Sequence record: EU078592
Length of the DNA stretch: 42,925 nucleotides
Strand: one strand, 5' to 3'
Source: Escherichia phage DE3
Below, in pieces: positions 1,424 through 1,501 of the stretch. Position 1 is the stretch's first letter; the number at the start of each line of letters is the position of its first letter. The position numbers were made by a program, and so were the translations under genes. A model generated the notes under the pieces. It did not search any database. It saw only the letters and a list, made by a program, of their open reading frames with translations, and had not been told where the DNA came from.

Positions 1424-1436
1424 GCGCAACGCAATT
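1416..1436. promoter_or_regulatory. lac operator O3 (auxiliary), overlapping lacI 3' end
   Basis: GGCAGTGAGCGCAACGCAATT. Confidence 0.8.
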
Positions 1437-1457
1437 AATGTAAGTTAGCTCACTCAT
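1436..1457. promoter_or_regulatory. CAP/CRP site of lac promoter carrying L8-type change (TGTAAGT instead of TGTGAGT, A at 1442)
   Basis: TAATGTAAGTTAGCTCACTCAT; one base differs from the wild-type CAP half-site as I recall it. Confidence 0.75.
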
Positions 1458-1472
1458 TAGGCACCCCAGGCT

Positions 1473-1501
1473 TTACACTTTATGCTTCCGGCTCGTATAA
1501 T
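1473..1501 (+). promoter_or_regulatory. lac promoter with UV5 -10 (TTTACA -35 at 1473-1478; TATAAT -10 at 1496-1501)
   Basis: -10 hexamer reads TATAAT rather than wild-type TATGTT. Confidence 0.9.

Follow-up and report, generated by a model that had tools for sequence, protein, structure and literature searches.

The lac promoter upstream of T7 gene 1 in Escherichia phage DE3 carries both the L8 and the UV5 mutations

Introduction

Which lac promoter stands before the T7 RNA polymerase gene of Escherichia phage DE3 (EU078592), and do all of its departures from wild type matter for expression? An earlier note on this DNA, made from the letters alone, had read an L8-type change in the CAP half-site together with the UV5 form of the -10 hexamer, and had proposed that basal and induced T7 polymerase levels are therefore less tied to cAMP and glucose than with UV5 alone, with consequences for leaky expression. 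Here, we follow up that reading over the whole stretch of 42,925 nt (the window), by comparison with native lac promoters, collections of genomes and the literature.

Results

Identity and layout of the window

Compared over its whole length, the window is 100.000% identical to positions 748396-791320 of the BL21(DE3) genome (NC_012971.2). This stretch is the DE3 prophage, with the attL core at its start and its last base just before the attR core (Table 1). The two halves of int are parted (254/4697) by a 4.4-kb insert, lacI-PlacL8UV5-T7 gene 1, at the BamHI site. The remainder maps to lambda J02459, with the exception of one substituted region, which we take to be imm21 from the known DE3 genotype. 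At the nin5 junction, the flanking lambda matches overlap by 10 bp (14876-14885), and the b-region deletion, which covers 4.9 kb (lambda 21232-26103), is flanked by matches that overlap by 6 bp (41306-41311). All parts of the lambda DE3 cassette are present: lacI, a lac promoter, lacZ' and T7 gene 1 at the int BamHI site of an imm21 nin5 lambda, placed at attB.

Table 1. Coordinates of the features discussed, numbered from the first letter of the window.
Feature	Position	Strand or side	Remarks
att core GCTTTTTTATACTAA	1-15	attL side	att core of BL21(DE3), at the start of the window
lambda int 3′ end to BamHI site	1-254	minus (int)	100% identical to lambda J02459 27724-27977
K-12 lac segment, 1,723 bp	263-1985	+	lacI with wild-type promoter, lac control region, lacZ 5′ end
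lacI (LacI repressor)	341-1423	+	WP_000805902.1 in the BL21(DE3) annotation; identical to K-12
Auxiliary operator O3, intact	1416-1436	+	exact match to GGCAGTGAGCGCAACGCAATT
CRP/CAP site, 22 bp, TAATGTAAGTTAGCTCACTCAT	1436-1457	+	centred at -61.5; carries L8
-35 hexamer TTTACA	1472-1477	+	same as wild type
-10 hexamer TATAAT (UV5 allele)	1496-1501	+	wild type is TATGTT
Primary operator O1	1508-1528	+	exact match
lacZ' ORF, 149 aa, LacZ N-terminus and linker codons	1546-1995	+	ORF list, translation; annotated as partial pseudogene
Auxiliary operator O2, intact	1909-1929	minus	exact match to AAATGTGAGCGAGTAACAACC
T7 fragment	2000-4696	+	T7 3145-5841, 100% identical to T7 V01146
T7 gene 1, T7 RNA polymerase	2026-4677	+	protein identical to T7; under L8-UV5 control
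int 5′ remainder	4688-5608	minus	partial integrase in annotation
Rest of int and leftward genes	4697-11108		lambda 27971-34381 (map against J02459)
Immunity region	11109-12971		no match to lambda J02459; non-lambda substitution
lambda backbone segment	12972-14885		lambda 38591-40501 (map against J02459)
lambda backbone segment	14876-20080		lambda 43298-48502; nin5 deletion at junction
lambda backbone segment	20081-41311		lambda 1-21231; cos ends joined at 20080/20081
lambda backbone segment	41306-42925		lambda 26104-27723; b-region deletion at junction

Transcription is taken to start at A1508, the first base of O1, as established for the lac promoter; numbered from there, position 1442 is -66, positions 1499 and 1500 are -9 and -8, and position 1507 is -1. 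The left CAP half-site reads TGTAA (1439-1443) with the A at 1442, and the whole site matches the CRP consensus at 14 of 22 positions, against 15 of 22 in wild type. No perfect CRP core (TGTGA-N6-TCACA) was found elsewhere in the 42,925-nt window. In a promoter scan, the two hexamers and their 18-nt spacer gave 11 of 12 consensus matches. The centre of O3 lies 92 bp upstream of that of O1, and O2 lies 401 bp downstream of the O1 centre. All three operators keep their native spacing because the lacZ' fragment reaches +478, so looping repression of T7 gene 1 by LacI should be possible. The lacI promoter was also considered as a possible lacIq, a C to T change in its -35 hexamer (GCGCAA to GTGCAA), and this was rejected, since the window reads GCGCAA as MG1655 does; GTGCAA was seen in W3110 CP165600 and in MG1655-pvir.

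Downstream of the promoter, lacZ' precedes T7 gene 1 on what is predicted to be the same mRNA. The T7 fragment begins at T7 position 3145, past the E. coli C promoter (T7 3113), and stops at T7 5841 within the phi1.1A promoter (AAATCAATACGACTC/cggatcc, window 4682-4704). This truncated promoter is presumably inactive and the sole T7 promoter remnant downstream of gene 1.

Comparison with native lac promoters

Over 263-1985, 1,720 of the 1,723 bases are identical to K-12 MG1655, and the differences fall at 1442, 1499 and 1500 only. The first, G to A at -66, turns TGTGA into TGTAA in the left CAP half-site and is the L8 change; the other two, G to A at -9 and T to A at -8, turn TATGTT into TATAAT and are the UV5 change. 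TGTGA and TATGTT are found in all seven native E. coli lac promoters that were aligned, from K-12, from BL21 and from five diverse wild isolates. The earlier note had named as its own refutation an alignment in which the wild-type CAP site has A at this position; the alignment places G at -66 in wild type, and both the L8-type reading of the half-site (A at 1442 against G in 7/7 native promoters) and the UV5 reading of the -10 hexamer (against TATGTT in K-12, B and wild E. coli) are upheld. Three random substitutions would give these exact changes within 1,723 bp with a probability of about 6/(1723x3)^3, or about 4e-11; the match is not due to chance.

Against the native lac region of strain B there is a fourth difference, at 1507 (G in the window, A in strain B). 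The G is the K-12 allele, and A is found in the native promoter of BL21 and in all five wild isolates aligned. Four differences over the segment reproduce the figure of Kwon et al. (PMC4632034), who describe a lac duplicate of "1,723-bp ... exception of 4 nucleotides"; published accounts place one of the four differences between DE3 and host lac in the CRP site (PMC5306230, PMC4632034). Natural lac promoters vary at 1446 (T/C) and at 1507 (G/A).

Distribution of the L8 and UV5 alleles

The interval 1400-1530 was found at 100% identity in 16 of 20,395 E. coli records, all of them DE3 lysogens or engineered strains. All four combinations of the two alleles are present in the genome collection, and wild type is the usual one. 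L8 by itself was seen in W3110 CP165600, a genome that is also lacIq, and in one BW25113 assembly, UV5 by itself in BL21(RP) CP084683 and in CP081489, and L8-UV5 in DE3. We also searched 5,426 genomes with a synthetic query in which L8 was set on the common natural B-type haplotype (TATGTT, A at -1). It was matched at 100% by C41(DE3) and C43(DE3) only, at DE3 coordinates; more than 2,400 records matched at 99% or above, and each of those listed was a natural isolate with a single mismatch. It follows that G at -66 is the wild-type base.

W3110 CP165600 (extract 2501-2631) carries L8 at the native lac locus together with lacIq, and a laboratory W3110 described as "lacIq lacL8" (PMC11968103) fits this genotype. 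In BW25113 CP193896 (extract 2501-2631), L8 stands alone at the native lac locus and the lacI promoter is wild type. UV5 without L8, in BL21(RP) CP084683 and in CP081489 (a record labelled BL21(DE3)), occurs in two odd contexts: in one, lacI-PlacUV5-lacZ' adjoins a 16S rRNA gene near bor/ybcV; in the other, PlacUV5 precedes a full-length lacZ by yfdF. These loci represent either engineered strains or assembly artefacts. MG1655-pvir CP169294 (extract 1442-2805) has a lacIq and L8-UV5 cassette, followed by a kanamycin-resistance gene and adjoining glmS, which suggests that a control region from DE3 was brought into K-12 by a Tn7-type insertion.

Species-representative genomes scanned with a 31-mer of the CAP site (A or G at the L8 position) gave mostly short contigs of unrelated taxa, which look like contamination by cloning or expression vectors and have little bearing on natural variation. 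In 39 contigs of unrelated taxa (Streptomyces, Bacillus, cyanobacteria, MAGs), the L8 A is followed by CACCGGGATCTCGACCGATGCCC, a junction that we read as a pET-type lacI cassette on a pBR322-type backbone; a T7 promoter is also present in 16 of the 39, and draft assemblies contaminated with expression vectors are the likely source.

Likeness to known lac promoters

Every base of the promoter is identical to the lac L8-UV5 of lambda DE3 in BL21(DE3), the system of Studier and Moffatt, and so is its context (lacI, lacZ', T7 gene 1 and split int). Judged by sequence, the feature is this known element itself and not a relative of it. Wild-type lac of K-12 and B has the same -35 hexamer, spacer, O1, O2, O3, lacI and flanks, but differs in its G at -66, with which the CRP site is functional, and in its TATGTT; owing to these two features, the wild-type promoter is CRP-dependent and weaker than that of DE3. 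In strain B, -1 is A as well. PlacWeak of C41(DE3) and C43(DE3) shares the DE3 location and the L8 change (PMC5306230, PMC5988807) but has acquired TATGTT and A at -1 by gene conversion from the host, and its activity is below that of wild type. TATAAT and G1507 are kept in the window, and identity with PlacWeak was rejected on these two points. lacUV5 without L8 (BL21(RP) CP084683, CP081489) has the same TATAAT but an intact TGTGA, where CRP-cAMP can presumably still bind. The lacI cassette of pET vectors shares the lacI 3′ end, O3 and the L8 A with DE3; unlike DE3, it is cut just past the CAP site (…CATTAGGCACC/GGGATCTCGACC…), which leaves no lac promoter. It presumably comes from the same L8-UV5 source DNA.

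Discussion

We conclude that the feature is almost certainly the lac promoter of the engineered DE3 prophage (lambda D69-type, imm21 nin5) in its double-mutant L8-UV5 form, and that it drives a lacZ'-T7 gene 1 transcript. Nothing in the sequence itself speaks against this reading. The UV5 -10 hexamer is the sigma-70 consensus, at which RNA polymerase would form open complexes efficiently without CRP. The G that L8 replaces is conserved and is one of the TGTGA bases in direct contact with CRP; its loss would lower CRP-cAMP binding and remove activation. With both mutations, the promoter would exceed wild type in strength and escape catabolite control to a large extent. Repression by LacI, supplied by the wild-type lacI on the insert and by the host copy, would be kept through O1, O2 and O3, and IPTG or allolactose would induce the promoter. 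The expected cost is a greater leak of T7 RNA polymerase before induction.

Our own results establish the identity of the sequence, the place of each element and the strains that carry the haplotype; what is said here on CRP binding, on the strength of the promoter and on its leak is drawn from the literature. L8 is reported to reduce CRP-cAMP binding with loss of CRP activation (PMC6390180, PMC5988807), and UV5 to be highly active without CRP-cAMP (PMC5306230, PMC4029002). By published accounts, the promoter gains strength and loses part of its dependence on CAP/cAMP through the two -10 changes, and the change in the CAP site lowers the affinity for CAP/cAMP. The functional reading of the earlier note is in line with this, apart from its statement that L8 reduces CRP dependence, which is loose: L8 alone is a promoter-down mutation, since CRP-cAMP can no longer activate (PMC5988807, PMC5306230). 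It is better to say that L8 abolishes CRP activation and that UV5 makes such activation unnecessary. The concern with leakiness finds support in the report that PlacUV5 is leakier than the wild-type promoter (PMC8474846).

How far the uncoupling goes is a separate matter. UV5 alone "reduces (but does not eliminate)" catabolite sensitivity (PMC4029002), and we infer that the DE3 promoter is less tied to cAMP and glucose than UV5 alone; in the literature searched, we found no direct comparison of L8-UV5 with UV5 only in DE3. As cited in PMC1180468, Grossman (1998) reports derepression of DE3 lysogens in the absence of inducer when cells are in stationary phase and the medium contains no glucose, and the title given there terms this cAMP-dependent. 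The independence of the DE3 promoter from cAMP and glucose is therefore incomplete.

Other identities for the promoter were considered. A TATAAT hexamer and O1 are also common to tac/trc-type hybrids, and some other engineered derivative of lac might be imagined as well; however, the -35 hexamer is the lac TTTACA at the native 18-bp spacing and not a trp-type TTGACA at 16-17 bp, and all of the DNA upstream is contiguous K-12 lac. A tac/trc identity was rejected on the hexamer and the spacer length, and we assign no probability at all to a hybrid or other derivative of this kind. It could also be argued that the A at 1442, a single-base difference in a promoter whose neighbouring positions 1446 and 1507 vary naturally, is a polymorphism or a sequencing or assembly error with no functional meaning, and not L8. 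The chance of this we consider virtually nil. The base recurs in each of the 16 identical records and in the 39 pET-type lacI cassettes, and the literature names this very position L8 in DE3 (PMC6390180, PMC5306230, PMC5988807); the alignments of native promoters and the haplotype searches over 5,426 genomes, where A on the natural haplotype was matched at 100% by C41(DE3) and C43(DE3) only, led us to reject it.

A different objection accepts L8 and holds that it is silent beside UV5, merely carried along from the strain used for the selection of UV5 and adding nothing to the behaviour of DE3. UV5 was reportedly isolated (Silverstone et al. 1970) as a catabolite-insensitive revertant of L8, which would favour such a view; in that case, the pairing of the two mutations is a matter of history, inherited and not designed. 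By 1980 the promoter was already being called the "L8-UV5 lac promoter", to judge from the title of Hirschel et al. as it appears in reference lists. UV5 alone is usually called CRP-cAMP-independent (PMC5306230, PMC8474846), and there are strains, apparently in use, that have UV5 and lack L8 (BL21(RP), CP081489). On the other hand, L8 does matter once UV5 is lost, as the activity of PlacWeak below wild type indicates (PMC5306230, PMC5988807). On balance, we regard a wholly silent L8 as rather unlikely.

It is also conceivable that L8 is not neutral even while UV5 is present. DNA bending induced by CRP has been reported to cooperate with LacI looping, and the CRP site falls within the interval of the O1-O3 repression loop. 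Loss of CRP binding may then weaken repression through this loop and add to the leak of T7 RNA polymerase, or it may alter what remains of the cAMP-dependent derepression in stationary phase. We hold this to be quite improbable. If it were true, a tighter DE3 host would result from a return to G at -66 with UV5 left in place.

The L8-UV5 promoter sits within a 1.7-kb duplicate of the host lac region and is therefore open to RecA-dependent gene conversion, by which UV5, and in some cases L8 too, can be lost. Positions -9, -8 and -1 are easily exchanged through recombination with the host copy, and at times -66 is exchanged with them (PMC4632034, PMC5306230); PlacWeak in C41 arose by recA-dependent recombination (PMC5306230, PMC4632034). 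In the genomes of both C41(DE3) and C43(DE3), L8 is kept, the -10 hexamer is back to TATGTT and -1 is A. Position 1507 marks the tracts of gene conversion, with A in C41 and C43 and G in DE3. The promoter of these strains falls below wild type in strength, since the remaining L8 prevents activation by CRP-cAMP (PMC5988807). The promoter-down effect of L8 is thus unmasked when L8 alone remains, and this weakness is the clearest evidence of a functional effect of L8 in DE3.

The name L8-UV5 for DE3, the three mutations and the recombination in C41 and C43 are all already published. Their importance lies in the host concerned: no other is so widely used for protein expression, and this promoter determines how much T7 RNA polymerase it makes before and after induction. 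What is called lacUV5 in DE3 has L8 as well, together with the K-12 allele G at -1. This makeup would account for expression that is largely insensitive to catabolite control, for the speed with which selection by toxic proteins gives strains of the C41 type through recombination with the host lac promoter, and for the weakness of the promoter in those strains, where L8 stays behind. The effect of L8 beside UV5 on the leak, or on the residual response to cAMP, is a small and testable engineering question.
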